Made by a program: the position numbers and the translations under genes. Shown here piece after piece: positions 24,725 to 48,542 of a stretch of DNA of 64,000 nt (the first letter of the stretch is position 1; each line of letters begins with the position of its first letter). The stretch is taken from the IMG/VR virus record IMGVR_UViG_3300027797_000021, positions 27,617-91,616 of that record, one strand, 5' to 3'. The notes beneath the pieces were generated by a model. That model ran no database searches and was not told the DNA's origin. It was given only the letters and a program-made list of their open reading frames with translations. The DNA is from a virus.

Positions 24725-27700
24725 CTACGTTCCCGGATTCAATGTGACTTGTCTTGGAATTAGTGCAGATTCTTCTGCGCTAATAACTGATTGGGACTCC
24801 ACTTGAAGCTGCTTTGCATAAACTGTTGCAAGATTATTAACAACTAGTTCCCAGTTTAGAGTAACCGGATATCCATCTTCGTAATATTCATCCCAGAATA
24901 TAGTAGGCCAATCATTAGACTTTTCATAAGTTGTTTCTAATACCTTAAAGCAAACTAGATTATTGTAAAATCTATTAAAGTCTTCTTCCGTCAGTCCATA
25001 ATTTGCCATTGATTGTGCAGAAAGATCCAATGGTGGATTATATTGAATATCCAAAGTAGCAATTTTTTTCATAATATTGGATCTTTTTATATAAAGGGGA
25101 GATTCCTCGTACACTGAAGCAAAAAACTTTTTACTAACATCATCATCTGTGCCTGTATCTGATACTGTAGGAACAATTATCTTCCCCTGATTTGCAACGA
25201 AACATCCCCTGACAAAATCTTTTGCTTGATTGATGACTGATTCTGGCTGATAGTACCAGACCGTCCCTAGTGCTCTTTTCCCTTCGGCGCCGTCGAAAGA
25301 GTCTTTTGTATAGTTTTCAAATCTATTCTCAGCAGCGCCGGGTTCAAACTGAGCTTCGAATATAACATCATTACTTGAGCTATTGCTAACTTTCATTCTT
25401 AATACAAATACTTTATTAGCTATTTTACTCTGCGTATAAATCTTAGCTCTACCGCCAGGGGTTGAGGTAGATGTTAGATTCGTTGTATCCCCAAATGGAT
25501 CGTTAACATCTCCACCTGGTTCACTTGGGATTTCTCCCACTCTCATGGTATTGGTTTCGCCTGTGTTCATTCCATCAAATCTGACAGTAAAAGTTGCTCC
25601 AGAAATAACGTCCTCGACATCAAATGTGTCGCCGTCTTTAAACTTAGTAACTGTTGCTATTACCTTAAATAGGGATGTTTGCAGGGCAGTTTTCTCTGGA
25701 CCAAGTCCGCTAAGACTAAGTACTCGAGCGTGTGTTAGAGCATTTTCGTAATCAGTATATCTGACTAGATCTTTTATTTCAGTTTCTTGCCATCCAAGAC
25801 TCTTTAGTAGGTCGTCGCTTCTAATAAAGGCATTGCCTTCAGGCGTTTTTACTTTTGTTCTTGCTCCTAATATTCCTGGCAGTAAAGCTTTTGTATGGTA
25901 CCTACCTACTACCATACCTTGATTATATGATAATCCTGCGTCCATTGGTTGACCATTTTTATTTAGATACTGAACATAGCAGCCATGCTGATCGAGTACG
26001 TTATCCCTCAGCCATGTCCAGCCCTTCCAGGCTAATTGCCCAACGATTGGAACTGCCCTTGCCAAAGATGCTCCCACGACTGCTATAACAGTATCTGCCC
26101 CCGGCACTTTAGCTTGCCCGGCTCTTGCTATTTCGTCTCGTGCTCTATCCGGAAGGCTTAGCGCAGTTTGATTTGCCATAATATCTTTCATCAAAGCTGA
26201 GGATCCGTGTGTATACTGAATTCCGCCAATCATCTGTGTACTCAAGGAGTCTGCTAGTGCATCTACGGAAATGTTTCCACCCATGTTTATACCAGAGTTC
26301 GATGCCATAATATTATCCATGTAGAATCTAGTATCATTTCTTAGATTCTGCATACTGAGCCATGAGTGCAACCATGTTGACATAAACCATCTGGAGGGAT
26401 CATTAACTGTAACTAAGGCATTGGGTGTGATGCTGGTAACGTATCCCATCTCTGAAGTGAAGTGATGAACTACTTGCTCTACCTCAAATATTCCATACAT
26501 TCTACTATAGACATCAGATAGATACACTAAGTCGTGCGGTCTAATATCTGGATTTCCCACTAAAGTGAGTTCTCCACCATAAATATCCTTAATGGATTCC
26601 TTTAGATGGGATAGTGCCACTCTTCTCGCGGACAGTTCATCTGGAGTGCCTTGTAAAGTTTTTGCATATCCCCTAAATGTTTCCAGGGGGTGCATAAAGG
26701 GGTGAAGAACTCCAAGGAATCCAGAACCAACCATATTATCATAATATAATCCGGTCTCAACTGTAGTCTCTGTTTGACGCTCTGATGGAGCCCCTTTATC
26801 TAATGCAACCGTTACTGGATTTTTTCCATCAGAAACCGCTGTAATAACAGTTGAAACGTTATTTAAATTTTCTTGAATTTGATTGGATATAATATGAGAA
26901 AAAGAACTTAAATAATGTATTCTTTGGAATGGCTGGCGAACCTCTACTACAGGCTCTCCATATTCTCTAGTGAATGGATTGTCAACTGCCCTTAACAGCG
27001 TTCCTGGTCTTCCGAGTGAATAGTATATTGAATCATTTAATACTTTATTAAGAATATGAGCCTGCTTACTAAAGTTCCCAACCTCAGAAAGTGCATATCC
27101 CATCTGCATCATGCTCAACTTAAACATGCCCAAGAGTGAGCTCAGGCCATCTCCAATGGCTCCAAGTATTGGACCAATATTAGCGTTGTAGAAATCTGAT
27201 ACGTCTTCATCTATTCCACCAATAAACGTTGAAGAGTTACTTCCCTCTCCTTTTGTCGAAACTAAAAGCTTTAGGAATTTACTATTGTCTTTAGCGTATT
27301 GGCTATATGGATTAATGAATGCTTCAAATACTTTATCGATTGGCTTAAAGGACCACTGTCCATCTTCGCCTCCTCCGCCAGATGTAATTGCACCACGTTT
27401 TCTGTCTGGCTTAAGCACTAGCCAAGCTCTACCATATCCAGAGCTCCAAAGCTTTTGCCTGAATAACCCAACCATCAATAGGAATAGTTGCTTAGGTGTC
27501 TTAACTGCTTCTGATAAATTTATTGCAGTTTCTGGATTATCTTTATTCTCAATTGAAATTGAAAGCGCGTTATTAATTACCTGTGTTTCAAAGAAATTTG
27601 ACCTGATACCATCTAATGATTTAGAGATAACACTATTGAAATACTGTATAATTCCAGCGTCGCCTTGAACTCCTTTACTCTGATAGTCTATATAGTTATT

Positions 27701-35992: not shown

Positions 35993-36001
35993 TATATTTT
36001 C

Positions 36002-36451
36002 CTACTTAAACATCATATTATTGCGAACAATAGTTCTAAGTCTATCACTTGAAGAATCTTTCATTGTAACAGAAGTATAATTATTCATTATACTAGACTT
36101 TGTTTCTTTCTTGAATGAATCTAGAGTAAAATTTTGCTTTTTTGTTTGCGGGTCTTTATTGTACCTAGCCTGCTGGTGTCTTTTGCCACTGTATCCGCTG
36201 CCATTCATCTGAAGACGCGTAGTTGGGGCGTCATCTAAGCCCTCTTTAGAGTATTTAATTTTATCAGATTTCCCTGATGCCTGTATTTTTTGGCGTGATT
36301 CGCCTACAACATTTTGGGTCGGACTCTTACTGGAAGCTATTTTTGCTGCATACTTGTTTGCTGTTAAGGATCTATGAGATGTGTCTTTGGGCTGTTTAGC
36401 AGCGGCGCTGAGCGCTTTGTTTTGGTCCTTGACATTTAAAATCATATACAT
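36002..36451 (-). CDS. Small basic (Lys-rich) hypothetical protein
   Basis: 149-aa ORF filling the gap between two giant genes on the same strand; low complexity and basic. Confidence 0.55.
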   Translation of the reverse strand: MYMILNVKDQNKALSAAAKQPKDTSHRSLTANKYAAKIASSKSPTQNVVGESRQKIQASGKSDKIKYSKEGLDDAPTTRLQMNGSGYSGKRHQQARYNKDPQTKKQNFTLDSFKKETKSSIMNNYTSVTMKDSSSDRLRTIVRNNMMFK

Positions 36452-36457
36452 TTAACC

Positions 36458-39400
36458 TTAATAAGATCGGGCCATCGATTGATATGGGTCTCTTGCCACA
36501 TCCGGGATTCTATTATACATAGTACTGTTAATGCTTCCATTAGTAAGTCCTGATGCTGCTGTACTAAATTTTTGTATTTGATCTCTATCCCCGAAAAGAG
36601 ATACCCTATAGTTCATTCCGGCAGTATATCCCTGACCTCTTGCCTGAGGGACCTCTGGAGATCTTCTTGGGTAGTCAGATTCGTAGGCGGATCCTCCTGG
36701 CAAAAGTGGTGGACCGGAAATGTCCTCCTGGGTATGGTCTTTCTTGTTTTGATACAAAAAGCTTGCTGCTATAGCCAATCCAGTACCTATTGCTGCGTTA
36801 CGGACATTCGACTTACCAAACTGTTCTGCTAGGTATTGTTTATTAATTCTCTTGTAGGCCGTTGCTGATGAGGTAGATTCCCCGTTACCCGATAGGTCCC
36901 TGAGTGTGTCGGCAACTATACTAGAGGTTTGATCTGTAATGTCGTCTGCAGTTCGAAGAATATTACTTGAAGCTAAATCTCCATTTAAGAAAGCTGCAGC
37001 TTCCTTGTCTGCTTGTGCAGTTTGTTCAAAAAGAGTCTTGCTTTTCAGGGCCGTAGCTATCCGCTGCTCTTCCATATTGGCTGCCCTCTCAGGGGCTTGA
37101 CCTTTTATGAGTGATGAAATCACGGAAGAATTATTACTTGTTCCAAAGAAGTCCTCTGCAAAATTCAAGTCTAATCCCTCATCTAGAATGCCAGCTTTTT
37201 GGGTATCAGAGATACCGCCAAAAATGTTATCGATATATTGTCTTAATTCCAGATTTCTGGTTTGTTTTTCATATATAGATTTTTCTTGTGAGATTTTCAT
37301 GTATCTTTGAAAAAGATTAGCACTTGTTCCATCTGGCCTCATAGATGAGTCTGGCAGTTTTGTAAAAAAATCTATATCTATATTCTTTTTTATTCCACTA
37401 TATTGAAGGGCGTTAGTCATTTCGTAACCAGATATACCCATTGACCTTTGTACGTCCTGCACTCCTTCTAAGAGCTTATCCCCTAATTGCATTTTTCTTA
37501 TTTCCATTTCTATCTTTGCCATTTCCCCTCCCCCATCTTTATCCATGATACTGCCTAAGTCTTGTATTGATTTTATCAACGCTGCATTTTCGTCTAGTAT
37601 TTTCTCTGAGGCAACCTGAGAACGCTGTGTAATCCTAGAAGCTAGTTCTTGCTCTCTAGATATTTGTGAGTTTGCACTTAACCTTCTCTTGGCATTCAGA
37701 TAATAATCGGAAGCATTGGCTATATCTACCATTTCCGAAACAGATCCCTTTGCTATAATTCCTTTAGCCCTTAAGAGTTGCTCTACTTGCTCAAATTGAT
37801 TAGATTGTGCAGCTGCGCTAATGTCTGATATGTCTGCATTGGGATCCGCCAATGCCATTCCCTCTGATAGGCTTTTAGCAAAAGTCACAAGATCAGTCTG
37901 ATTCATTTTTCCACTAGTTAAAAAAGCTTCATCGAGTACAAGGGCTTTGCGTTTATCCGATGGATCCATTCCATCAAGTTTGTGTTTTTGTCTTAAATAG
38001 CCAAACATTTTTCCATACTGCTCGATTGTAGCATTGCCCATTTCATTTAGGTTGGTACTCTCTCCATATATTGCCTTGAGCATTTGTTCAGATTGTATGG
38101 TGCCCATGCTTGCGGTCCGAGCTGTGTGCTGCATGAGTTGTCTACTCGAAGAAATGCTAGCGGGAAAAAGATTCATCTCGCCGGAAGTAAAAGTTTGAGT
38201 CATGTCAATGACACTTTCAGCGGAAGGGAAACCCATTAATAATTTCTTATTTAATAAATCCTGTTCTATACCGGGAACTGCGCCTAGCATATCTTCAATT
38301 TGCCTAAGACCGTGGCCGACTACAGTTGCTCTATTGACATATTGTCCAAGTATATTTTTATTTGCTATTGCTGAATCAATGCTTTTATTAATAAAAGTTT
38401 TACCATATAGAGCGGCTTTTTGTTCTGTGTTAAGTCCCAAGTTTTCAATTTCATCGTAAAATTTTTGAGATAAATCACTTATTGCTGCTCTGCTATCATC
38501 TAAATCTTTTCCACCTAAGTTTGAAAGATTTTTTCTTTGCGTTTCTAATTCTTTTACAATTTTACCTAATCCTGTTTTTTTCCTTGCATCTATTGTGTCA
38601 TCTAGATTTGAGAATATGCTAGATTCAAGTGGCATGTCAGCAATTTTTGCTTCTAACCTTTGGAATCCAAGTGACATTAACGCTGGATCTTCATTCCCTA
38701 GCGCAATTAGCTTTGTTGCAGAAAAGTTTTCTATTGTGTTTTCGCCAGATTTTAATACTCCAAGTTTTTCAAAAAAGTTTCTATTGAAATCTCGCATTCC
38801 AGTTCCGGCAATTCTTTCACCTGTAGTATCATCAAACTTAGCGCCACTCACCCTATCATTAACATCGATTGTCAATTGCTCTAGCATTCCCATTGTATTC
38901 GGATTAAAAAGATCGTCTGACATTCCAGTTCCATCAAGAGCGCTGGATAAAACTTTATACTTAGAATCTTCTTCAGCCATCTTACCTAAAGTATCCATAA
39001 AGAATCTATTTTTACCGAATACTTCACGATAGCTTTCTATATCATCAAATCTAGTGAGGCCAATAACTTCGCCCATTGAAGTAGGTTGGCGGACTATGGC
39101 AGCAGCTAGCTTGCGCTTACCTTCAGACATGTATGTACCAAGTATGGGTAATCCCTTGTCGTCTAAGTCGAAGCCACCAAGTGCGTGATAAAACTTTCTG
39201 ATATCTCCTTCACTAAAGAGAATATTATGATTAGACACTCTGATACGTGCAATATCTGCGGAAATTTCATTGCCAGCTTCACCTATTTTTATTGAAATTG
39301 GTTTTCCTGATAATATTTTTCTTCCAGTAGTTCCCGTCATTGCATTTGCTTCGGAGTTAAGAGCAAATCTATACACGTCACCAACGACTGGGAGCTTCTG

Positions 39401-41293
39401 CCCATTCTTGGTTTTGTACAACTCAGATTGATACCATTTAGATAATAGATTCATATATTCTGGAGAATCATTAATACTTATGCCGCTATTGTGGAGGTCT
39501 AAAATTCTTTGCTGGAAGTCTCTACTCATCATTTTTGAGAACTGCTGGTGTTCCATAAAGTCATCAATGTCTAGCTCTGCACCTTTTCTAATTGCTCTTA
39601 GGACCTCACTATCTTCCTTTAAGCGCCCGCTAGATAATACAGCCTGGAATTCATCCAGTACATTTTTCGAATGGGCTTTAGCTATTAGCTTATCTTCCTC
39701 GCTTCCAAAGGCTGCGTTATGAAAAGCTACTAACATTGGATCGGTATACACCCTAGAAGTAGCTTCGGCTAGTCCGCTGAAGTTTACGATTGGAGTTCCA
39801 GCTGCTATTCCTGTCTCTTTTTTTAGTCCACTGATTGCAGTAATAATTCCATATTTATCAAATCTATCTGAAAACTTTTTAAATTGAGCTGCCGTTTTAT
39901 AGGAATAATCTATTCCTCCAATTCGCACAGAACCTCTAACTGAACCTTGAGACAACCCTATAGCTTCTCCGTCTTTACCTATGCTTATCTCAGCTATCTG
40001 CCTTCTCAACTCAACCTTGCGAATCATTGATTGTTCGTCTCTATTTTGTGTAAGACCTAATAATTCCTCTTGTAGGTTTTCCCTTAATCTTTTCGCGTAC
40101 TTTACGTTCACTAGTGACGATCCATCTCGACCTTTTTCTAGTTCACTAAAGAGACCTTTGAGAACATTTTTAGTGTCCTTATCTGATTCATTTTTTAGTA
40201 AATTTTTTACTTGCTCGATACCATATCTTCCCTCTGCGGCATCTATGTCTCCAGTTCTAATGGCTTCGCTTATTAGATCCCTCAGTGAACTTTTTATTTC
40301 GGCAGATTTTGAACCAAGCTTTTTTGATGCAATTATTTCATCTAACACTTCATCAACATATTTATTTGCTTCTTGACGTGCTGTTCGGCCGCCTTCGTAT
40401 TCAAAGGATTCCCTTACATATGCTGCCACATCTTGTTGCTTAACTGATTTTCCTAATGATGTATCTCTACCAAAAGCTAGTGCCATTGTTTCGAACACAT
40501 TGTCAATATTCAGTGTCGCTTCAGATAACTGTTTCATTATCTGTTCAGAGCCAGCGCCCGTAGCACTAAGGGGGATCTTGGTACCCAGGAAGGACTGCAT
40601 AAGGTCACCCGATATGGATATTTCTCTTGGAGATAAAACTCCTTTTAATCTTTTTGGAAGCTTTGCAAATAACTTAGATAGGCCTTCGTTTCCGCCTTTT
40701 ATTGCTTCATCCAATTCCCCTGGAGTAAATAAAGGTTTTCCACTTTTTGACATTGTTTCAAGTGTTTCCTGCATTGATAGGACTCGATCACCTTGTCTAA
40801 GATTAAGGGCCATTGCTCCATCATCAGTAGGGAAAACTAATCCCGTTCCCTGTTCTTTCATTTTTTTCAAGAAATCTGGAATACTTTGAGATCCAACTTT
40901 TGCTTTATGGATTATAATTTGAGCACCGTATTGCTGATCTCCAGTAAATCCTAATTTTTTATTAATATCTTTTAATACTTGAGCGTAGTCTCTATATTCT
41001 GCGGGGCCAAGGGATCCTGGCGCAATATCCGCAAGTTCGGTCGCTCCAAAACCAGATAGATACTGCACAGCGTCTTCTAGTGAGTCAGTTACTAGCCGTG
41101 CTGATTGTCCCCGATTCAATCTTAGGGAGTCAACATAAGTTGATCTAAATTTTAGTTTTCCGTCAACCTCTACAGGCTCTATTAAACCCTTTTGACCAAA
41201 GTAAGTTTTACTTAAAGCTTGTTTAGCTAAAAGTATTTGCCTCTCCATTGGCATGGGAGATAGATAGGACGTGATTAATTCACTTAAAGCCAT
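36458..41293 (-). CDS. Large virion protein; candidate single-subunit two-barrel RNA polymerase
   Basis: 1611 aa with the ordered motifs RDGSSLVN, VR...YKTA...SGLKKE, ALGGFDLDDK and IVRQPTSMGE (see findings), plus a C-terminal hydrophobic segment. Confidence 0.5.
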   Translation of the reverse strand: MALSELITSYLSPMPMERQILLAKQALSKTYFGQKGLIEPVEVDGKLKFRSTYVDSLRLNRGQSARLVTDSLEDAVQYLSGFGATELADIAPGSLGPAEYRDYAQVLKDINKKLGFTGDQQYGAQIIIHKAKVGSQSIPDFLKKMKEQGTGLVFPTDDGAMALNLRQGDRVLSMQETLETMSKSGKPLFTPGELDEAIKGGNEGLSKLFAKLPKRLKGVLSPREISISGDLMQSFLGTKIPLSATGAGSEQIMKQLSEATLNIDNVFETMALAFGRDTSLGKSVKQQDVAAYVRESFEYEGGRTARQEANKYVDEVLDEIIASKKLGSKSAEIKSSLRDLISEAIRTGDIDAAEGRYGIEQVKNLLKNESDKDTKNVLKGLFSELEKGRDGSSLVNVKYAKRLRENLQEELLGLTQNRDEQSMIRKVELRRQIAEISIGKDGEAIGLSQGSVRGSVRIGGIDYSYKTAAQFKKFSDRFDKYGIITAISGLKKETGIAAGTPIVNFSGLAEATSRVYTDPMLVAFHNAAFGSEEDKLIAKAHSKNVLDEFQAVLSSGRLKEDSEVLRAIRKGAELDIDDFMEHQQFSKMMSRDFQQRILDLHNSGISINDSPEYMNLLSKWYQSELYKTKNGQKLPVVGDVYRFALNSEANAMTGTTGRKILSGKPISIKIGEAGNEISADIARIRVSNHNILFSEGDIRKFYHALGGFDLDDKGLPILGTYMSEGKRKLAAAIVRQPTSMGEVIGLTRFDDIESYREVFGKNRFFMDTLGKMAEEDSKYKVLSSALDGTGMSDDLFNPNTMGMLEQLTIDVNDRVSGAKFDDTTGERIAGTGMRDFNRNFFEKLGVLKSGENTIENFSATKLIALGNEDPALMSLGFQRLEAKIADMPLESSIFSNLDDTIDARKKTGLGKIVKELETQRKNLSNLGGKDLDDSRAAISDLSQKFYDEIENLGLNTEQKAALYGKTFINKSIDSAIANKNILGQYVNRATVVGHGLRQIEDMLGAVPGIEQDLLNKKLLMGFPSAESVIDMTQTFTSGEMNLFPASISSSRQLMQHTARTASMGTIQSEQMLKAIYGESTNLNEMGNATIEQYGKMFGYLRQKHKLDGMDPSDKRKALVLDEAFLTSGKMNQTDLVTFAKSLSEGMALADPNADISDISAAAQSNQFEQVEQLLRAKGIIAKGSVSEMVDIANASDYYLNAKRRLSANSQISREQELASRITQRSQVASEKILDENAALIKSIQDLGSIMDKDGGGEMAKIEMEIRKMQLGDKLLEGVQDVQRSMGISGYEMTNALQYSGIKKNIDIDFFTKLPDSSMRPDGTSANLFQRYMKISQEKSIYEKQTRNLELRQYIDNIFGGISDTQKAGILDEGLDLNFAEDFFGTSNNSSVISSLIKGQAPERAANMEEQRIATALKSKTLFEQTAQADKEAAAFLNGDLASSNILRTADDITDQTSSIVADTLRDLSGNGESTSSATAYKRINKQYLAEQFGKSNVRNAAIGTGLAIAASFLYQNKKDHTQEDISGPPLLPGGSAYESDYPRRSPEVPQARGQGYTAGMNYRVSLFGDRDQIQKFSTAASGLTNGSINSTMYNRIPDVARDPYQSMARSY

Positions 41294-44200
41294 TATCTAA
41301 CACCTGCATTAATATCAATTTGTTCCGATCCAAAAGGATTCATAACTGGAATAACAGATCCTGATACACCCATACCACTCATTAAGGATCTTAGTCTTGA
41401 AGCAGTGTCTGTCTGGGATCCGGTTCCACCGCCAAATCTAGGATAGCTAGGATTGGATAAACTGGCTTCTTGTATCTGTTGTGGATAGTAACCCATTTGC
41501 GACATTTCCAGTCCCATATCTTGACCAATCTTTATTTTAACTTGATCCATGCTGGTATTTGGGTGCCAACCTTCCCAATTTTCGTTTGGTAATTCGTTCT
41601 TGGAAAAATAATCAGTTAACTCTGGTCTCTTTTCTACTTCCATGCCCCACGCAGCTTCGTATATTCTTCTCTCAAGTCTTCCAGCTGTTGATAATATTCT
41701 TTCTCTTTCATTTACGGGAGCATTGATCATGGCTTTAAAGTGTTCCCGTTTTCTTTTTGGTATTGCCAAAGAAAGTGACTCTATGTCAGTTCCGTATTTG
41801 CCTGAACCTATTTCTTCTATTGGGGCGCCATACATTGTTCTTTTAGCAGCTGACTCATACTGAAAGGCTGCGCCCCTATCTCCAGCCATGCTAGCCATTT
41901 TAGCTAATCTAGTATTTTTAGTATATGTTAGGATGTCTGCGTACTCTTCTAATGCAAGTTCCTTTTTCCTAGTCCTCGGCATGAACTGCTCGCCAGTAAT
42001 GGCTTCGTTTGCTGAATGAAGTGAGGAAACACTAAATCCCGTCACTGCTCCAAGTGTCGACATTACAAATTTTCCTTTGCTAGATTGCCCAAAAAATGTA
42101 CCAGCTACTGCTAATGTAGCTGCTGCTGTTATGGGATCTCTATTCCCAGCTTTATTGACCATTGGAGCTATAAAGCTTTCAAAAGGCCTTTGCCATTCGG
42201 GGAAGGTTGCGCCATATACGTTGTTTCTTTCCCATTCTTCTGTTGATGTTTGTTTATTTATAAACTTCTTATTAATGAAAGTATCTCTATGCGCTAGCAT
42301 TTCGCCCACCCTACTTACTGCATGAACAGTAGGATGCATGCCCATTTCCTCAGGGGTGCTATCTTTATACTTGTATTCGGTGAAGTTTTTCTTCTGTTGT
42401 ATTGATACTGCGCGTTCTCTAAGTTCCTGAACCCTTAACTTATCGGTAGGATTATCTACCATAGAATCTATGGTTTTATCTAACGATCTAAATTGCTTTG
42501 AGTATGGAGCGACGTCTCCAAGTATCTTATACTGATCCATTACCCCGTATCTGCCTGTGGCATCTGGACTTAGCCTATTTAATCTCTCATAGGCTACTCC
42601 GGGTAATCTGAGTTCTCCTTCCGGAACCTTTGTAAACGGGTCACCTGTAGTGAAATCCGTAAAGTATTCTGATCCCGGGAGGAATGGATACTGCTTACCC
42701 ATTGTATTCTTAATCGGATTTATGTAGTCAATTCCCGATCTTTCTTTAGGTATAAATCTTCTTGTTATTTCTGAAAACTCTATAGAACCTATTTGCTTTC
42801 CGCCCAACATGGGGATGTCTCCTAGTCCTCCTAGGTTCATATCCCAAAATTGCCTTCCAGTTCCATATGCTTTAGAAGCCGATTGCAAAACTGACCTTTG
42901 TGGCGCCAAGTCCGATTGACCCAATCCAAAGCTTTCTCGTACGCTGCTTGCAGCAAAGCCGTAAATACCTAGCATTTCTTGAGTCCTATATCCAAGTTCC
43001 TGTGCTTGGATTTGTGGATTACCCGCATTTATTGGACTTCCAGCCGGAACAATACGCTGCGGCATAACGCCAGTCATCTTAGGTGCTCCATAGGCCATCT
43101 GCATATACTGATTATTAACGCCGGATATTGTATTTCTAGTTTCATTTCTAGCGGTATTAAGTGACCCCGCTCTTCCGGCCAGCATTGCGTTAGAAGATGC
43201 CTGTGTGCCGTTTGGAGGGCCTCCAGATCCCCCCATGGCCATTCCACCTGCAACTCCTCCCATGCCCCCAAAAACGCCACTTCTGCCATTAATGTATGGA
43301 TCTGCATTATAAGCTCCAGATTGACCAGCTGGCACGTAGTTGGCTAGTCCCGCAGCAACCTCTTGTTGATGCATCATAGTCTGAGGTTTTAGTATTTTTC
43401 CAACAGTGGCATTGAGTGCTGGAACAAGCGGACCGAATGGCCCACTGAAGTACTCACCGGATACAGGGTATGGCCTATCCTCGGAATGCTTACGCTCAAA
43501 ACGATAGGGATCAAGCGGTCTAAGCGGAGATATGTCAGTATGGAACAGTGCCCTTTCTATTGGGCTCCCCATGCTGTCTGAGGTGAACATTGCTCCAGTT
43601 TCTAATTTACGATATATGCTTGGGCGGTAGTACATAATTTTTCCACCCATGAATGGAGTGTTACCCAATGGCCAGAATCGACCTTGCCTAATTGCTACTT
43701 CGCCTTCAAATAATTGTTCTTTCTTTTCTTCAAAATTCATTCCACCAGGAGTAATGCCAGAACCAAGAGCTTGTAAATTTCCTGCTGCCTTAGCAGCTCC
43801 GCCGATAAAGAATGGTGAGTAAACCCTTTCTCCTCTATCATCTTTTTCATTTACCATTCCACCGATAGTTCTGTCGGCGGTCATTATGCCTAAACCAGCA
43901 CCGTATATTGGCAAGATTCTCTTGCCAACCATTCCACTCGTAAATAAACTCAAAGGTGAGCCGTATTGAGAAACGTCTAACTGTAGGCCAATAGTTCCAA
44001 AATATTTATTTAGTCTTTCAACGCTGTGAGACACTGCAGCCGACGCATTAGAGTAGCTCTCAGTACTATTGTAAGTATTAATTCCTAGAGCGCTTTTTAT
44101 TGCACCGTATGGATTCCTAGCAAAAACGGTACCAAAAGTTGGAACCAGGAGAACGTCAGCGCCCTGTCCCCTTGTAGACCCAAGAACGTCTGTTGCTGAT

Positions 44201-47200
44201 TCTGATATGCGATAAGGAGCCGTGCTGAGTCTCGGGTATAATGCTTTCTTAATTAAACCAGACCTTCCTACCTCTCCTATTCTTTGGCTAGTTCCAGTGA
44301 TAAAGGGGTCAACTAGTCCTTCTGCGTCTTTTAGGGCCTCTATGGAATTTTTGAATGCGCCTCTTTGTACCGCTAGTTCACTTAGTCCAGATCTATTTGC
44401 CTTCATAGCACTTAAGTTAAATAGTGTTGAGAGTCCGGCTGCTTGCGCTTCTGCCAACTGACCAGCTGGTAAATCCTTTGCCATTTCAGTAATAATTTCA
44501 TTCATCTGAATAAAAGTATTAGAAAAATTTCGCCCTGCTGCACCGGCTGAACCTGATGCCAATAATTCATTTCTTTGAACTAAATATTTGAATAATTCAT
44601 CTTGAAGCTCATCCCCTCTTGTTAAGATTGTGGGGCTTCTTTTTCTGATATGGGACCCAGACATTAAATCTGCGTCCTGCATTATATCTCTTAGTCTTCT
44701 ACTCGTTTCATATAAGGTATCTGGCTCATAACCTAAACCCCTTATTCTGGATGCATCGTAATTCAATGACGCAAGTACATCATCGGTCATTTGTTTTGTA
44801 TCTTGAACATTAGTAAGTGAAGAGACTCTTCTACCATTAAATGTTCCTATGCCATTATCCTCAAGAACTTTCATTACTCTCTTGGGCATGGCAAAGCCAC
44901 GAGTTTGTTTTCTAAAGTTTTCAAATGACCTTAGCATTTCGCCTTCGGTGATCATTTCGCCTGCAGTACCGGGGGATCTTGCTGTCACTGCGCCAGTATC
45001 ATCTGCTATATTTACTCTAAATTGTTTCCCATTGGAATCAACTGTTTCATCCCTAAGTAGTCGTCCAAAAAAGGATGGGTTTTCTGGATCAGTTTTTCTT
45101 TTAGCGAACCTTGACAATAAACGCCCTATTGAATTTGGCTGCTCATAATCAATATCAAATTTTTGCCTAAGAGCAAGTTCTCTTTCCGGGCTAACTCCAA
45201 GTCTTTTTAATAGATTTGATCTATTTTTCCCGTCAGCAAATTCGACTTCATTGAGCGACTTTGCCTTACCTTCTGAGGCTGCGTTTCTTGCAGCTCTTGA
45301 AAGCATTTCGTTACTTTTCCTAGAAAGGGGCCTATAGAATCCTTCTAGTTCTTTTGACTGATATTGACCAGTGATTGATTCCTCAGTAAAGGACATTACC
45401 TTATGCTTAGTGCGGCCTCCGCTATAAGATAAAAAGAAATCAGCGCCTTTATCTGCGTCAGGAAGAAATGGTTGGGATACTTTTCCTTGCACTATTTGAA
45501 ATGGGGAACGGCCTGACATTTCATCAAATGAGCCTTTTCCAAGCATTTGCATTGGGTTAAAGTTAAGTATAGGAATTTTTAAATCATTACTTAAAAAGTT
45601 GCCAACATTTCTTACTGATTGCTTAACGCCAGAGAAGTCCAATACATTTCCAGAACGAGTTTTGTAAACATCTCTCATTACTGAAACGCTGGAAGATGTT
45701 GTCGTTGGATCGGCTAATGCCATTCTCTTGGATATCTCACCCAGCATTGTTTGACTATCGTCGCTAAGTCCTGCGAATAGCCCTTGACTTACACCTTCGT
45801 CTAAAGTCATTGCCTTTAATCCGAGAATATTAAATCCTCTACTAAATATGCCAGTACTTATCTGCTTTTCTCTTACTAGAAAACTTCTTAAACTATCTGG
45901 ATTATTGGTGTTTAATCCTCTTTTTCCTAGGTTTTGACTTAGTACGGCACTAGAGACTTCTCGACCATTTGCGTCTTTTAGATTTATTCCTAATCTTTGT
46001 GCTGATCTTTTAATCAAAAAATCTTTTTGGGAAACTGATAAATTATTTAAATCTGCAAAATCTTCAAAATCTGCTTTTTTAGTCTTTAATACTTTGCCTG
46101 CCACGCGAGGCATGGCATTATCAAGTATGGAATTCCATCCTTTTTCTGCTTTTACTTTTATTGCAGCTTGAAATTCTTTACCTTCAAATATTCTATTAGT
46201 ATTTTCTATAGATGTTTTCAGGGCATCTGAGCTGAGAAATCCTCCCTCAATCGAATCGTCTACCGTTGTTGAAAATCTTTTTAATATTTCCTCAAAAGCT
46301 TCATCGCCCTCTTTGATAATTTTAGTTTTGCCAATAGTTACTTTTCTACTAGTTTCTTTGACTGAAGTATTAACACTTACGTCATCTATAAACTTTCCTA
46401 AAACCCCAGAAAATCTTTCGCGACTAGAATTTGGTGCCACATCCAATATTTGTTTTTGAAGAAGCTGTTTATATTCTCGCTGCTCGACTTGCCTATAAAA
46501 CTCTGAACCACTAAACGACTTACTCCCTACGCCTCCTCCTCCGCTAGTGCCAAATTTTTCAGCCAACTTGGATACTTTGCTGGAGAAATTAGCTCGCACA
46601 TTCGTGACTACGCTTGTCAATTCATCTGCATTCATCCCAGATTTATGTAGGGCTGCGTCAAAGCTTATGGCCTTATTCACTACATCATAGCCAACTCCAG
46701 TTTTCTTAAATGTATTAATTCCTTGATTGACGCCTGAGCTAATTCCTCTTAATCCGGGTATTAAATCTATATAGCCAAAATTGCCATCTGCTCCATCGCC
46801 AAAGGCTAATTTTCGACCAAAAATTGCAGCTCTCTTTAGGGTGTTTTCGCTTGCGGAATTAGCCCAAGATTCTCTAGCTCCAGTATTTCTAACGCTGTGC
46901 ATAATAGCGTTAATGTTAGGTCGCTGATTGGCGTAGTTTTCTGTTGCCGCTCTAACTGCAGCTGACCCTTGGGCTGAAACTTTTAATGCCTGATTTGTTA
47001 TCTTGCCTAGGTCATGGCCGACTTCTCCTAGGATATCGTCTAAATCAGTAAAGCGCTGAGCAGCTTTTGTCTTAAAGGAATTGACCCCAGACGACCTTGC
47101 CACATCTCCCATTGATTGTCTAAAGTTATGAAGAGATGACCTTGCATTACCTGCTGCTGCACCTGCTGCTTCAAATGGCAGGATTGTTGTAGCTAAAGCT

Positions 47201-47898
47201 ATTGACGATTCTTTAACAAAGTCTGTAACAACATCTACGGGATTGTACCAATTGACCTTAGGCTTATCTTCTCTTCCTCCAAATATTGGATCAATTAATG
47301 CTTTTTGCCCAATGTATAGTGCCGGTAATTCATACGGCGCACGCCTTGCAGAGGCCACCATTCTACTTTGTATGGAATCTCTAAGGGCCCAGATTGCTGT
47401 TGGTTCATTTTCAATGCCCCTGCCCGCCTGATTTAATTCTGCGGAAGTAAAATAATCTCCCCTGTCAGTCAACTTTGTTTGACCTGCAGTTAGTTTGCCA
47501 TTGCTTTCGAAAACTAGATTACTATATGGGTCTAGCTGATCCGGATTTGCTCCATCTATGGCCCTACTGACGCCACCTAGTTGGTCCAATTCTTTTCTAA
47601 ATCCAGTAAGACTTTTTACTGTCCTTGAGGAAAAACCCTCTGGATTAATGGACGCCTGATCCTGAAGCGTTTTGGCTAGCTTCAGGCCACCTTCTTTAGT
47701 AAACTTACTAAGGACAAACATGGCGCCTAGAGTGGCTGCACTTGTTGCAAAGAACCTTAATACTGGGTGACCATTTAAGGCCTTACTCACAAAGCCAGAG
47801 TTAGGAGCGTCACCTCGCTCCTCATCATTCATCGTTGGTAGGTCTCTAGACGTTACATTGTAACCTAAGTTTTGTATAGGTCCTGGATCTCTTACCAC
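41293..47898 (-). CDS. Tape-measure-position giant protein (tape measure or DNA-ejection protein)
   Basis: 2201 aa directly downstream of the chaperones; mostly helical, Gly/Ala-rich, with several hydrophobic segments; GTG start. Confidence 0.5.
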   Translation of the reverse strand: MVRDPGPIQNLGYNVTSRDLPTMNDEERGDAPNSGFVSKALNGHPVLRFFATSAATLGAMFVLSKFTKEGGLKLAKTLQDQASINPEGFSSRTVKSLTGFRKELDQLGGVSRAIDGANPDQLDPYSNLVFESNGKLTAGQTKLTDRGDYFTSAELNQAGRGIENEPTAIWALRDSIQSRMVASARRAPYELPALYIGQKALIDPIFGGREDKPKVNWYNPVDVVTDFVKESSIALATTILPFEAAGAAAGNARSSLHNFRQSMGDVARSSGVNSFKTKAAQRFTDLDDILGEVGHDLGKITNQALKVSAQGSAAVRAATENYANQRPNINAIMHSVRNTGARESWANSASENTLKRAAIFGRKLAFGDGADGNFGYIDLIPGLRGISSGVNQGINTFKKTGVGYDVVNKAISFDAALHKSGMNADELTSVVTNVRANFSSKVSKLAEKFGTSGGGGVGSKSFSGSEFYRQVEQREYKQLLQKQILDVAPNSSRERFSGVLGKFIDDVSVNTSVKETSRKVTIGKTKIIKEGDEAFEEILKRFSTTVDDSIEGGFLSSDALKTSIENTNRIFEGKEFQAAIKVKAEKGWNSILDNAMPRVAGKVLKTKKADFEDFADLNNLSVSQKDFLIKRSAQRLGINLKDANGREVSSAVLSQNLGKRGLNTNNPDSLRSFLVREKQISTGIFSRGFNILGLKAMTLDEGVSQGLFAGLSDDSQTMLGEISKRMALADPTTTSSSVSVMRDVYKTRSGNVLDFSGVKQSVRNVGNFLSNDLKIPILNFNPMQMLGKGSFDEMSGRSPFQIVQGKVSQPFLPDADKGADFFLSYSGGRTKHKVMSFTEESITGQYQSKELEGFYRPLSRKSNEMLSRAARNAASEGKAKSLNEVEFADGKNRSNLLKRLGVSPERELALRQKFDIDYEQPNSIGRLLSRFAKRKTDPENPSFFGRLLRDETVDSNGKQFRVNIADDTGAVTARSPGTAGEMITEGEMLRSFENFRKQTRGFAMPKRVMKVLEDNGIGTFNGRRVSSLTNVQDTKQMTDDVLASLNYDASRIRGLGYEPDTLYETSRRLRDIMQDADLMSGSHIRKRSPTILTRGDELQDELFKYLVQRNELLASGSAGAAGRNFSNTFIQMNEIITEMAKDLPAGQLAEAQAAGLSTLFNLSAMKANRSGLSELAVQRGAFKNSIEALKDAEGLVDPFITGTSQRIGEVGRSGLIKKALYPRLSTAPYRISESATDVLGSTRGQGADVLLVPTFGTVFARNPYGAIKSALGINTYNSTESYSNASAAVSHSVERLNKYFGTIGLQLDVSQYGSPLSLFTSGMVGKRILPIYGAGLGIMTADRTIGGMVNEKDDRGERVYSPFFIGGAAKAAGNLQALGSGITPGGMNFEEKKEQLFEGEVAIRQGRFWPLGNTPFMGGKIMYYRPSIYRKLETGAMFTSDSMGSPIERALFHTDISPLRPLDPYRFERKHSEDRPYPVSGEYFSGPFGPLVPALNATVGKILKPQTMMHQQEVAAGLANYVPAGQSGAYNADPYINGRSGVFGGMGGVAGGMAMGGSGGPPNGTQASSNAMLAGRAGSLNTARNETRNTISGVNNQYMQMAYGAPKMTGVMPQRIVPAGSPINAGNPQIQAQELGYRTQEMLGIYGFAASSVRESFGLGQSDLAPQRSVLQSASKAYGTGRQFWDMNLGGLGDIPMLGGKQIGSIEFSEITRRFIPKERSGIDYINPIKNTMGKQYPFLPGSEYFTDFTTGDPFTKVPEGELRLPGVAYERLNRLSPDATGRYGVMDQYKILGDVAPYSKQFRSLDKTIDSMVDNPTDKLRVQELRERAVSIQQKKNFTEYKYKDSTPEEMGMHPTVHAVSRVGEMLAHRDTFINKKFINKQTSTEEWERNNVYGATFPEWQRPFESFIAPMVNKAGNRDPITAAATLAVAGTFFGQSSKGKFVMSTLGAVTGFSVSSLHSANEAITGEQFMPRTRKKELALEEYADILTYTKNTRLAKMASMAGDRGAAFQYESAAKRTMYGAPIEEIGSGKYGTDIESLSLAIPKRKREHFKAMINAPVNERERILSTAGRLERRIYEAAWGMEVEKRPELTDYFSKNELPNENWEGWHPNTSMDQVKIKIGQDMGLEMSQMGYYPQQIQEASLSNPSYPRFGGGTGSQTDTASRLRSLMSGMGVSGSVIPVMNPFGSEQIDINAGVR

Positions 47899-47912
47899 GG
47901 TTTTTCCTTAGT

Positions 47913-48542
47913 CTAGCCCGATCCCCATAACTTATTTGCAATGGGGTCTTGATACGCAGCTTCCCCTTCTTTCTTGGAAAGATTATGACGAGCAGCTTTG
48001 ATTTTTTCTTTTTCTACTTCTTCTTGTGGATCAATCAATTGCAAAGTCAAATTGGTTGACTCCATGCCATTCATGTTCTGTTTAATCTCAATTATTTTTT
48101 CTGAAAGAGCTACATTTTCAGCTAACTCAGAGAATGTCATATTCTCTAAATCATCCGGGGTATATGTAGATATAGTAGCGAGAACAAAGGCTTTCATTAA
48201 ATTTTTGACCTCAGTAGCTTCATATCTTTTTTCCTCAAGAATATTCTTAGCTAAGGATACGGTAAAGAATCCGGATATATTCAATATCTCTTGAGACAGT
48301 GAAGACACTGCCCCAGGAGATATCGACATTAAATCAAAATTTTCTGGATAAATAATAGCGTACGACAGAATTAAGTCTTCCATGTCAGCGGAAGAAAAAC
48401 CATCTAAACTTTGAAGATATAATATCTTATTATATTCTTTAAAAGTTAATTCTCTAAAAACTAAAGTTTGACTTTTTACATCAACACTATAGATTTTTCC
48501 ATATTTACTTTTTAAGGTAAATACTAACTCTGGGTCTATCAT
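47913..48542 (-). CDS. Tail assembly chaperone-like protein (paralog B)
   Basis: LKSKYGKIY...LVFRELTFKEY; lies between the tube genes and the tape-measure position. Confidence 0.6.
   Translation of the reverse strand: MIDPELVFTLKSKYGKIYSVDVKSQTLVFRELTFKEYNKILYLQSLDGFSSADMEDLILSYAIIYPENFDLMSISPGAVSSLSQEILNISGFFTVSLAKNILEEKRYEATEVKNLMKAFVLATISTYTPDDLENMTFSELAENVALSEKIIEIKQNMNGMESTNLTLQLIDPQEEVEKEKIKAARHNLSKKEGEAAYQDPIANKLWGSG

Follow-up and report, generated by a model that had tools for sequence, protein, structure and literature searches.

All cellular genomes are transcribed by two-barrel RNA polymerases (RNAPs). Two features of these enzymes, a DxDxD metal loop and an Arg-x-Pro loop upstream of it, are treated as universal. 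In the phage P23-45, a virion RNAP (gp96) is fused to the N-terminus of the 5002-amino-acid (aa) tape measure, and gp64, a compact non-virion paralogue, is transcribed by gp96 (PMC10770324). The tail module of the Bacillus phage 0305phi8-36 runs in the order gp143/gp144 chaperone pair, gp145 virion protein, gp146 and gp147 hub, and gp146 is a putative tape measure present in the virion by mass spectrometry (PMC2147016). Here I analyse a 64,000-nucleotide (nt) stretch ("the window": IMG/VR record IMGVR_UViG_3300027797_000021, positions 27,617 to 91,616) from a 91.6-kb contig, estimated to be 43% complete, of an uncultured lake phage of about 200 kb. Within its tail module lies a gene for a 1611-aa protein, P0001. 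I consider it reasonably probable that P0001 is a tail-module virion protein with a highly divergent nucleotidyl-transferase of the single-chain two-barrel kind at residues ~380-1126, most likely a DNA-dependent RNAP, and that it is delivered through the tail and transcribes the first phage genes.

A sequence-only reading of the window had proposed such an enzyme at 39050-40140, which corresponds to residues 385-748 of P0001. The four motifs that it cited are all at the residues it gave in the translation of 36458-41293: GRDGSSLVNVKYAKRL, which contains D390-G391; VRGSVR...YKTAA...ISGLKKE, with R453, K466 and K491; ILFSEGDIRKFYHALGGFDLDDK, which covers G706-K713; and AAIVRQPTSMGEV, which covers R735-E742. 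A word-indexed search returned 29 homologues and an exhaustive HMMER search with aa 330-900 returned 130 clusters at 50% identity. The homologues are mostly 1500-1750 aa long, with a conserved core at aa ~370-780. Conservation was assessed in alignments of 16 members, of 55 members (identity down to 20%) and of 151 members aligned to a profile, and in all three the residues named by the sequence-only reading are invariant or nearly so. In the 151-member alignment D709, D711, D712, G706, R735, P737 and E742 are each present in 147/147 sequences, D390-G391 in 127/127, K466 in 129/130 and K491 in 134/135. Judged from these alignments, the recurrence of the motifs is far beyond chance. Because the key residues are nearly invariant in a family whose column identity averages only about 20%, the pattern is, at the level of conservation, that of an enzyme active site rather than of a structural tape measure.

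Structure prediction points the same way. A model of aa 340-820 (481 aa, built on 55 sequences) has a predicted local distance difference test score (pLDDT) of 88.1 and a predicted template modelling score (pTM) of 0.86; for a longer model of aa 340-1160 (821 aa) the values are 79.6 and 0.80. The shorter model begins with a helical hairpin ahead of the small barrel. Strands of the first barrel occupy 110-177 in the numbering of that model, with D518 just past them, and the second barrel follows in the order strand, strand, helix, strand, strand, strand, helix, DLDD loop, strand. The prediction is thus of two double-psi barrels in one chain, the Lys-bearing barrel before the Asp-bearing barrel, as in single-chain two-barrel RNAPs.

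Searches with these models consistently returned that class of enzyme. The top rows of a Foldseek search of the PDB with the 481-aa model were QDE-1, phi14:2 gp66, RDR2 and P32 gp64, and no significant E-value was obtained from Foldseek against the PDB with the P0001 models. In a Foldseek-independent search of 48,161 chains QDE-1 ranked first and P74 gp62 second, and the remaining matches were helical hairpins of 45-55 residues. QDE-1, RDR2 and the phage two-barrel RNAPs were the sole long matches of both models. With the 821-aa model the alignments lengthen to 333-370 residues and reach QDE-1 1147-1161; they therefore extend past the bridge helix and trigger loop of QDE-1 (1082-1116), in which L1082, N1087 and R1091 belong to the bridge helix and D1116 to the trigger loop (PMC9508822). 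Counting along the aligned ranges puts DLDD no more than about four residues from QDE-1 D1007-D1011, and on the loop of RDR2. The spacing of L and N in the LGxYxNR motif of P0001 equals that of QDE-1 L1082/N1087. In BFVD, a library of predicted viral structures, significant matches (E 3e-9 to 1e-7) were obtained to three phage proteins that are uncharacterised; next come pieces of crAss-like RNAPs, phage proteins that bear the annotation "RNA-dependent RNA polymerase", and P23-45 gp64; a search of the ESM Atlas returned unnamed viral clusters only. The individual scores are all middling. Taken together, the models and their matches give moderate to good confidence that P0001 has a two-barrel polymerase fold, as the sequence-only reading had supposed.

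The tail-module setting is shared with 0305phi8-36. As the gene upstream of P0001 encodes a homologue of gp145 (BLASTP 1e-48 plus further segments) and the hub downstream matches gp147, P0001 is assigned by sequence comparison of its neighbours to the slot that the putative tape measure, gp146, occupies in that phage. In the sequence-only reading, the gene had a tape measure on one side and the hub on the other; the hub is where it was said to be, but the supposed tape measure, the 2201-aa upstream gene, is the gp145 homologue, and it is P0001 itself that stands in the gp146 slot. The order of tube, chaperone pair, gp145-like gene, P0001, 149-aa gene and hub is identical in 68/68 related IMG/VR loci, among which the neighbours, including the 2201-aa gene, are far better conserved than P0001 outside its catalytic core.

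Relatives of the window phage also encode a compact paralogue of P0001. A motif scan of the 205-kb relative G004 identified an 877-aa open reading frame (ORF) in which GGHDEDD is followed, after 24 residues, by RSPNDLGE. It belongs to the plus-strand arm of the genome, which spans 56 kb, consists of small genes and is opposite to the structural arm. The family to which it belongs comprises at least 230 proteins of about 850 aa (~850-877), corresponds to no Pfam family, and has the motifs GGxDxDD...RxP...GE and GxYVN...ExAID. Two further relatives (G001 and G002) carry it as well, and G007, a closer relative of the window phage, has a diverged form (HGTHDGDD...RIPNGAGEYS) of greater length (at least 1190 aa), truncated where the contig ends. 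An hhalign comparison of the paralogue family with the P0001 family gave three colinear segments that jointly contain every invariant motif: DG, R, K, K and D in one, GGxDxDD...RxP...GE in another, and GxYxN...ExAID in the third. No beta-prime-type or T7-type RNAP family was found in five relatives that are 92-100% complete, and the family of RNA-dependent RNA polymerase (RdRP) type was found in none of four of these five, in a search that recovered 0305phi8-36 orf99 as its positive control.

Given the invariant DxDD site and the predicted two-barrel fold, the phage probably brings its own transcription enzyme into the host. Beyond the predicted fold and the conserved residues, I infer the scheme (catalysis, template and product, packaging, ejection and timing) from the analogy with P23-45 and crAss-like phages. 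Assembly of P0001 would take place in the tail lumen, together with the gp145 homologue; at infection, the protein would exit through the tube ahead of or together with the DNA, to transcribe the earliest genes of the entering genome. In the active site, D709, D711 and D712 would form a two-metal site on a loop of the second barrel that is one residue short of DxDxD, assisted by D390 in the role that D709 plays in QDE-1. R453, K466 and K491 of the first barrel would hold the RNA and nucleotide phosphates, the conserved LGxYxNR helix would serve as the bridge helix, and the R735-P737 hairpin may stand in for the canonical Pro-gate loop and gate the nucleotide. Transcription of the next class of genes would afterwards pass to the compact paralogue, following the gp96/gp64 scheme of P23-45.

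Several observations weigh against this interpretation. In place of DxDxD, the loop is D709-L-D711-D712, with three Asp and a spacing one residue shorter, and nothing is conserved about 43 residues before the loop, where the canonical Arg-x-Pro would be; an upstream Arg, R685, is kept in only 123/146 members. P0001 had no match in Pfam, PHROGs or the PDB sequences. Compared by hhalign with a 44-member orf99/PF05183 alignment, the family gave no signal (probability 0.3%), and with P23-45 gp96 it aligned over just 40 columns (probability 0.3%). There is no detectable similarity between P0001 and gp146, which lacks both DxDxD and DxDD. The stretch after the polymerase module is only ~485 residues long, short for a tape measure, and the 2201-aa neighbour could therefore be the ruler instead of P0001. 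The residue equivalences to QDE-1 are derived from aligned ranges. Finally, the three segments that link P0001 to the compact paralogue are each weak (pairwise E 0.004, 0.06 and 0.36), and the window's own record, at 43% completeness, did not yield the paralogue.

Other searches at the sequence level gave the same picture. Pfam had no match for 16 family members, including families of the RdRP PF05183 and RNA_pol_Rpb1_2 PF00623 type; tblastn with the whole of P0001 and with its C-terminus found nothing in 50,697 cultured-phage records; and hmmsearch with a profile of the core found nothing in the 0305phi8-36 tail region or in P23-45. Between the paralogue family and the orf99 family, hhalign yielded short insignificant pieces only. 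One of its matches, over 15 columns, set GG..DG.KVV against the canonical GGxDxDGD and was taken as chance, since the structural ranges put the canonical loop on DLDD. Two-barrel families are reported to have little in common besides the metal loop (PMC10770324), and the absence of a sequence link for P0001 agrees with that remark.

The order of the catalytic elements could have another cause. As the sequence-only reading stated, the loop is DLDD and RQP lies downstream of it; the invariant R735-x-P737 is 23 residues beyond the Asp loop. The sequence-only reading explained this by a circularly permuted barrel; in such a barrel, swapped halves would put the Asp loop before the RxP strand. R-Q-P-T does follow the Asp loop in all members, and resembles the N-R-A-P-T motif of beta-prime; the site corresponding to R962-x-P964 of QDE-1, about 43 residues upstream, is unconserved in the P0001 family. 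However, when aligned sequentially, P0001 runs colinearly with QDE-1, RDR2 and gp64 from barrel B through connector and barrel A to the Asp loop and then downstream, and in the 481-aa model the canonical order of strands and helix is already complete ahead of the loop. Between DLDD and RQP there are just two strands (22 residues); swapped halves would require four strands and a helix. A permuted barrel is thus very improbable, and this part of the sequence-only reading is not supported. The simpler reading, which the model suggests, is that a lineage-specific hairpin after the last barrel strand bears the R-x-P.

It is rather unlikely, in my estimate, that P0001 is a true homologue of the two-barrel polymerases with another job: making primers or extending RNA primers, copying RNA templates as QDE-1 and the RDR enzymes do, synthesising DNA as PolD does, or pulling DNA as a motor, with no promoter-based early transcription. 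The best structural matches, QDE-1 and RDR2, are RNA-dependent or dual-template enzymes, and the placement of the metal loop and of Arg-x-Pro is unlike that of every characterised transcriptase. Moreover, a crude test for a promoter-like repeated word in the complete relative G004 was negative, as a k-mer scan returned only a coding tandem repeat. However, phi14:2 gp66 and P23-45 gp96, the characterised two-barrel enzymes that are linked to virions or tails, both transcribe from DNA templates (PMC10770324). An RNA-templated enzyme would be of no evident use to a double-stranded DNA phage, and the relatives have no further recognisable RNAP besides the compact paralogue.

The absent sequence link and the missing DxDxD signature would both be expected if P0001 were a structural tail-lumen, tape-measure or ejection protein, with an acidic motif for metal binding, for wall cleavage of the RlpA, MltA or expansin type or for a nuclease, and with a likeness to RNAPs that arose by chance or as a modelling artefact. 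Phage tape measures and hubs often bear lytic domains, and the neighbouring hub has one. Such a protein would not explain why the structural match spans two barrels, the connector and downstream helices in polymerase order over up to 370 residues; nor would a lytic barrel need the basic pair of barrel 1 or an Asp where QDE-1 has D709; and the identical motifs are retained in a paralogue that is non-structural. I therefore regard a purely structural or lytic role as distinctly unlikely. The lytic barrel was dropped as a candidate: no RlpA-, MltA- or expansin-type barrel was among the matches listed in any fold search.

Outside the polymerase-like module, which I take to be the catalytic part of P0001, the protein has conserved stretches at both ends (Table 1). 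K211, K214 and R215 are invariant within LFAKLPKRLKG (aa 208-218, window 40640-40672, minus strand; LPKRLKG in short) of the N-terminal domain. Towards the C-terminus, the sequence-only reading had noted a hydrophobic segment. It is present at aa 1500-1514 (36752-36796; AAIGTGLAIAASFLY), though only moderately hydrophobic, with a Kyte-Doolittle 19-residue mean below 1.5. It is followed by an invariant GPPLLPGG at aa 1527-1534 (36692-36715), and the final ~85 residues are highly conserved across the family. The moderately hydrophobic segment and the invariant GPPLLPGG would fit a part that sits in the tail lumen or contacts the hub, and the C-terminal ~485 residues are the candidate for it.

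Two complete relatives have a broken homologue of P0001. That of G002 (L039 9371-14204) is in two frames with an overlap of ~10 nt near the equivalent of aa ~660, so that the break falls inside the second barrel, before the Asp loop; that of G003 (L051 9340-14244) is in four pieces, with one TAG. These may be real splits, programmed frameshifts or assembly errors.

The genes of the window, all on the minus strand, make up the structural module of a contractile-tailed phage. PHROG profiles identify the major head protein, tail sheath, tube-like proteins and baseplate wedge proteins. The gene order is sheath, two tube paralogues, a 324-aa gene, the paralogous 185- and 209-aa genes, the 2201-aa gene and P0001, followed by the 149-aa gene, the 3755-aa hub, baseplate genes and large fibre genes. 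The start of P0001 overlaps the stop of the 2201-aa gene (TAATG), whose product has an N-terminal membrane-like segment and Gly-rich stretches. The position of the 149-aa gene recalls that of the small gene between tape measure and hub in P2-like phages. Near-identical DNA is present in lake and freshwater metagenomes from at least 14 studies, 2017 to 2025. For window 36000-48000, identical contigs occur in one freshwater metatranscriptome, including a 7.5-kb contig that spans the junction of the two large genes, and short pieces of the same stretch occur in a second metatranscriptome. Presence in an RNA library does not amount to transcription, and these contigs were not used as evidence.

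Table 1. Features of P0001, its neighbours and the compact paralogue. Coordinates are those of the window unless a locus or genome is named.
Feature	Position	Strand	Remarks
P0001 gene, 1611 aa	36458..41293	(-)	ORF translation; unannotated
N-terminal region, aa 1-340	40274..41293	(-)	carries the invariant K211/K214/R215 motif
RNA-polymerase-like module, aa ~380-1126	37916..40156	(-)	colinear with QDE-1 701-1161, RDR2 538-939 and P32 gp64 110-445
D390-G391	40121..40126	(-)	invariant; ~2 residues from QDE-1 D709 by range arithmetic
First barrel (beta-like; double-psi beta-barrel B, DPBB-B), aa ~449-516	39746..39949	(-)	predicted strands with R453, K466, K491, all (nearly) invariant
Helical connector, aa ~519-623	39425..39739	(-)	~100 residues in the model; clamp/neck position
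Second barrel (beta-prime-like, DPBB-A), aa ~626-723	39125..39418	(-)	predicted by the model
Metal-loop candidate G706-G-F-D709-L-D711-D712-K713 (DxDD)	39155..39178	(-)	147/147
Extra beta-hairpin past the last barrel strand, aa 726-749	39047..39118	(-)	predicted; carries R735-Q-P737...E742 (39068-39091)
Bridge-helix candidate L982-G-x-Y-x-N987-R988	38330..38350	(-)	conserved; start of a 23-residue helix
E1026-x-x-I-D1030 motif	38204..38218	(-)	conserved, D1030 invariant; common to the compact paralogue family
C-terminal region, aa 1127-1611	36461..37915	(-)	modelled part (to aa 1160) helical
Upstream gene P0030, 2201 aa	41293..47898	(-)	homologue of 0305phi8-36 gp145
Two paralogous small genes, 209 and 185 aa	47913..49103	(-)	position of the 0305phi8-36 tail chaperone gp143/gp144
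149-aa gene between P0001 and hub	36002..36451	(-)	Lys/Gln-rich; in every locus reaching that far
Baseplate hub mega-protein, 3755 aa	24725..35992	(-)	matches ORF147 of 0305phi8-36
Compact paralogue	L090 9897-12527 = G004 169897-172530	(+)	GGHDEDD...RSPNDLGE
Further paralogue loci	L093, L094, L096 10145-13714		

What is new here is the sequence-orphan family and its unprecedented, invariant DxDD loop; a two-barrel RNAP encoded in a tail module and probably delivered with the virion is already known. The sequence-only reading had spoken of an undescribed type, which stands for the sequence family and the DxDD site and not for the concept, published for P23-45 (PMC10770324). More broadly, and only tentatively, P0001 and its paralogue may represent a deep, previously unnamed clade of two-barrel RNAPs with a rewired active site (DxDD, and Arg-x-Pro from a post-barrel hairpin), used as a tail-delivered and non-virion pair in abundant, persistent lake myoviruses of ~200 kb. 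If so, this ancient fold would be freer in its catalytic geometry than the characterised enzymes suggest; if the enzyme is active, the fold tolerates another active-site layout, and does so across about 130 clusters at 50% identity. P0001 would be the second transcriptase in a tape-measure slot after that of P23-45 and the first in a contractile-tailed phage, and delivery linked to the tape measure would be common to long-tailed siphoviruses and contractile-tailed phages. P0001 and the compact paralogue would jointly account for the start of infection in common lake phages that have no other recognisable polymerase. Because Pfam, PHROGs and BLAST all miss the family, its genes are labelled hypothetical or tape measure in every metagenome.

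Among known enzymes, QDE-1 and RDR2 (PDB 2J7N, 7Y7P, 7EU1, 7W82; Pfam PF05183) share with P0001 the order, predicted in P0001, of barrel 1, neck, barrel 2 and candidate bridge-helix region. The catalytic residues of QDE-1 are D1007/D1009/D1011, with D709 of barrel 1 as a fourth Asp, and its Pro-gate loop is at R962-x-P964 (PMC9508822). P0001 differs from it in having DxDD, not DYDGD, in its much smaller core, and in its setting in a phage tail module; the Pro-gate of QDE-1 is 43 residues before the loop, whereas the RxP of P0001 is 23 after it. The crAss-like phi14:2 gp66 (PDB 6VR4) is a virion-delivered single-chain two-barrel RNAP and was second in the Foldseek ranking (E 0.039), a weak match that the second aligner did not confirm. 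Unlike P0001, it is cargo in a podovirus-like particle, has 2180 aa and carries a canonical DxDxD. The window resembles 0305phi8-36 in the gene order of its tail module, and its relatives resemble that phage in having a genome of two arms and a polymerase gene within the small-gene arm, where the paralogue of G004 has the place of orf99. The polymerase of 0305phi8-36 is a PF05183 protein, orf99, whereas the lake-phage relatives lack it and have the DxDD paralogue instead.

The closest precedent for P0001 is gp96 of the Thermus phage P23-45 (structures for this phage: PDB 8H2M/8H2N, 8F72, 8F5M). The two differ in several respects. In gp96, the product of a siphovirus, the RNAP is at the extreme N-terminus and has a canonical DFDGD at 779. 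P0001, of 1611 aa, belongs to a contractile-tailed phage of ~200 kb; its module lies at aa ~380-1126, its loop is DxDD with RxP after it, and a separate 2201-aa gene shares the slot. Nevertheless, each is a single-chain two-barrel polymerase, predicted in the case of P0001, in a tape-measure gene or slot; each is without sequence similarity to other RNAP families; and in P23-45, as in the relatives of the window phage, a second, compact paralogue is encoded among the non-structural genes.

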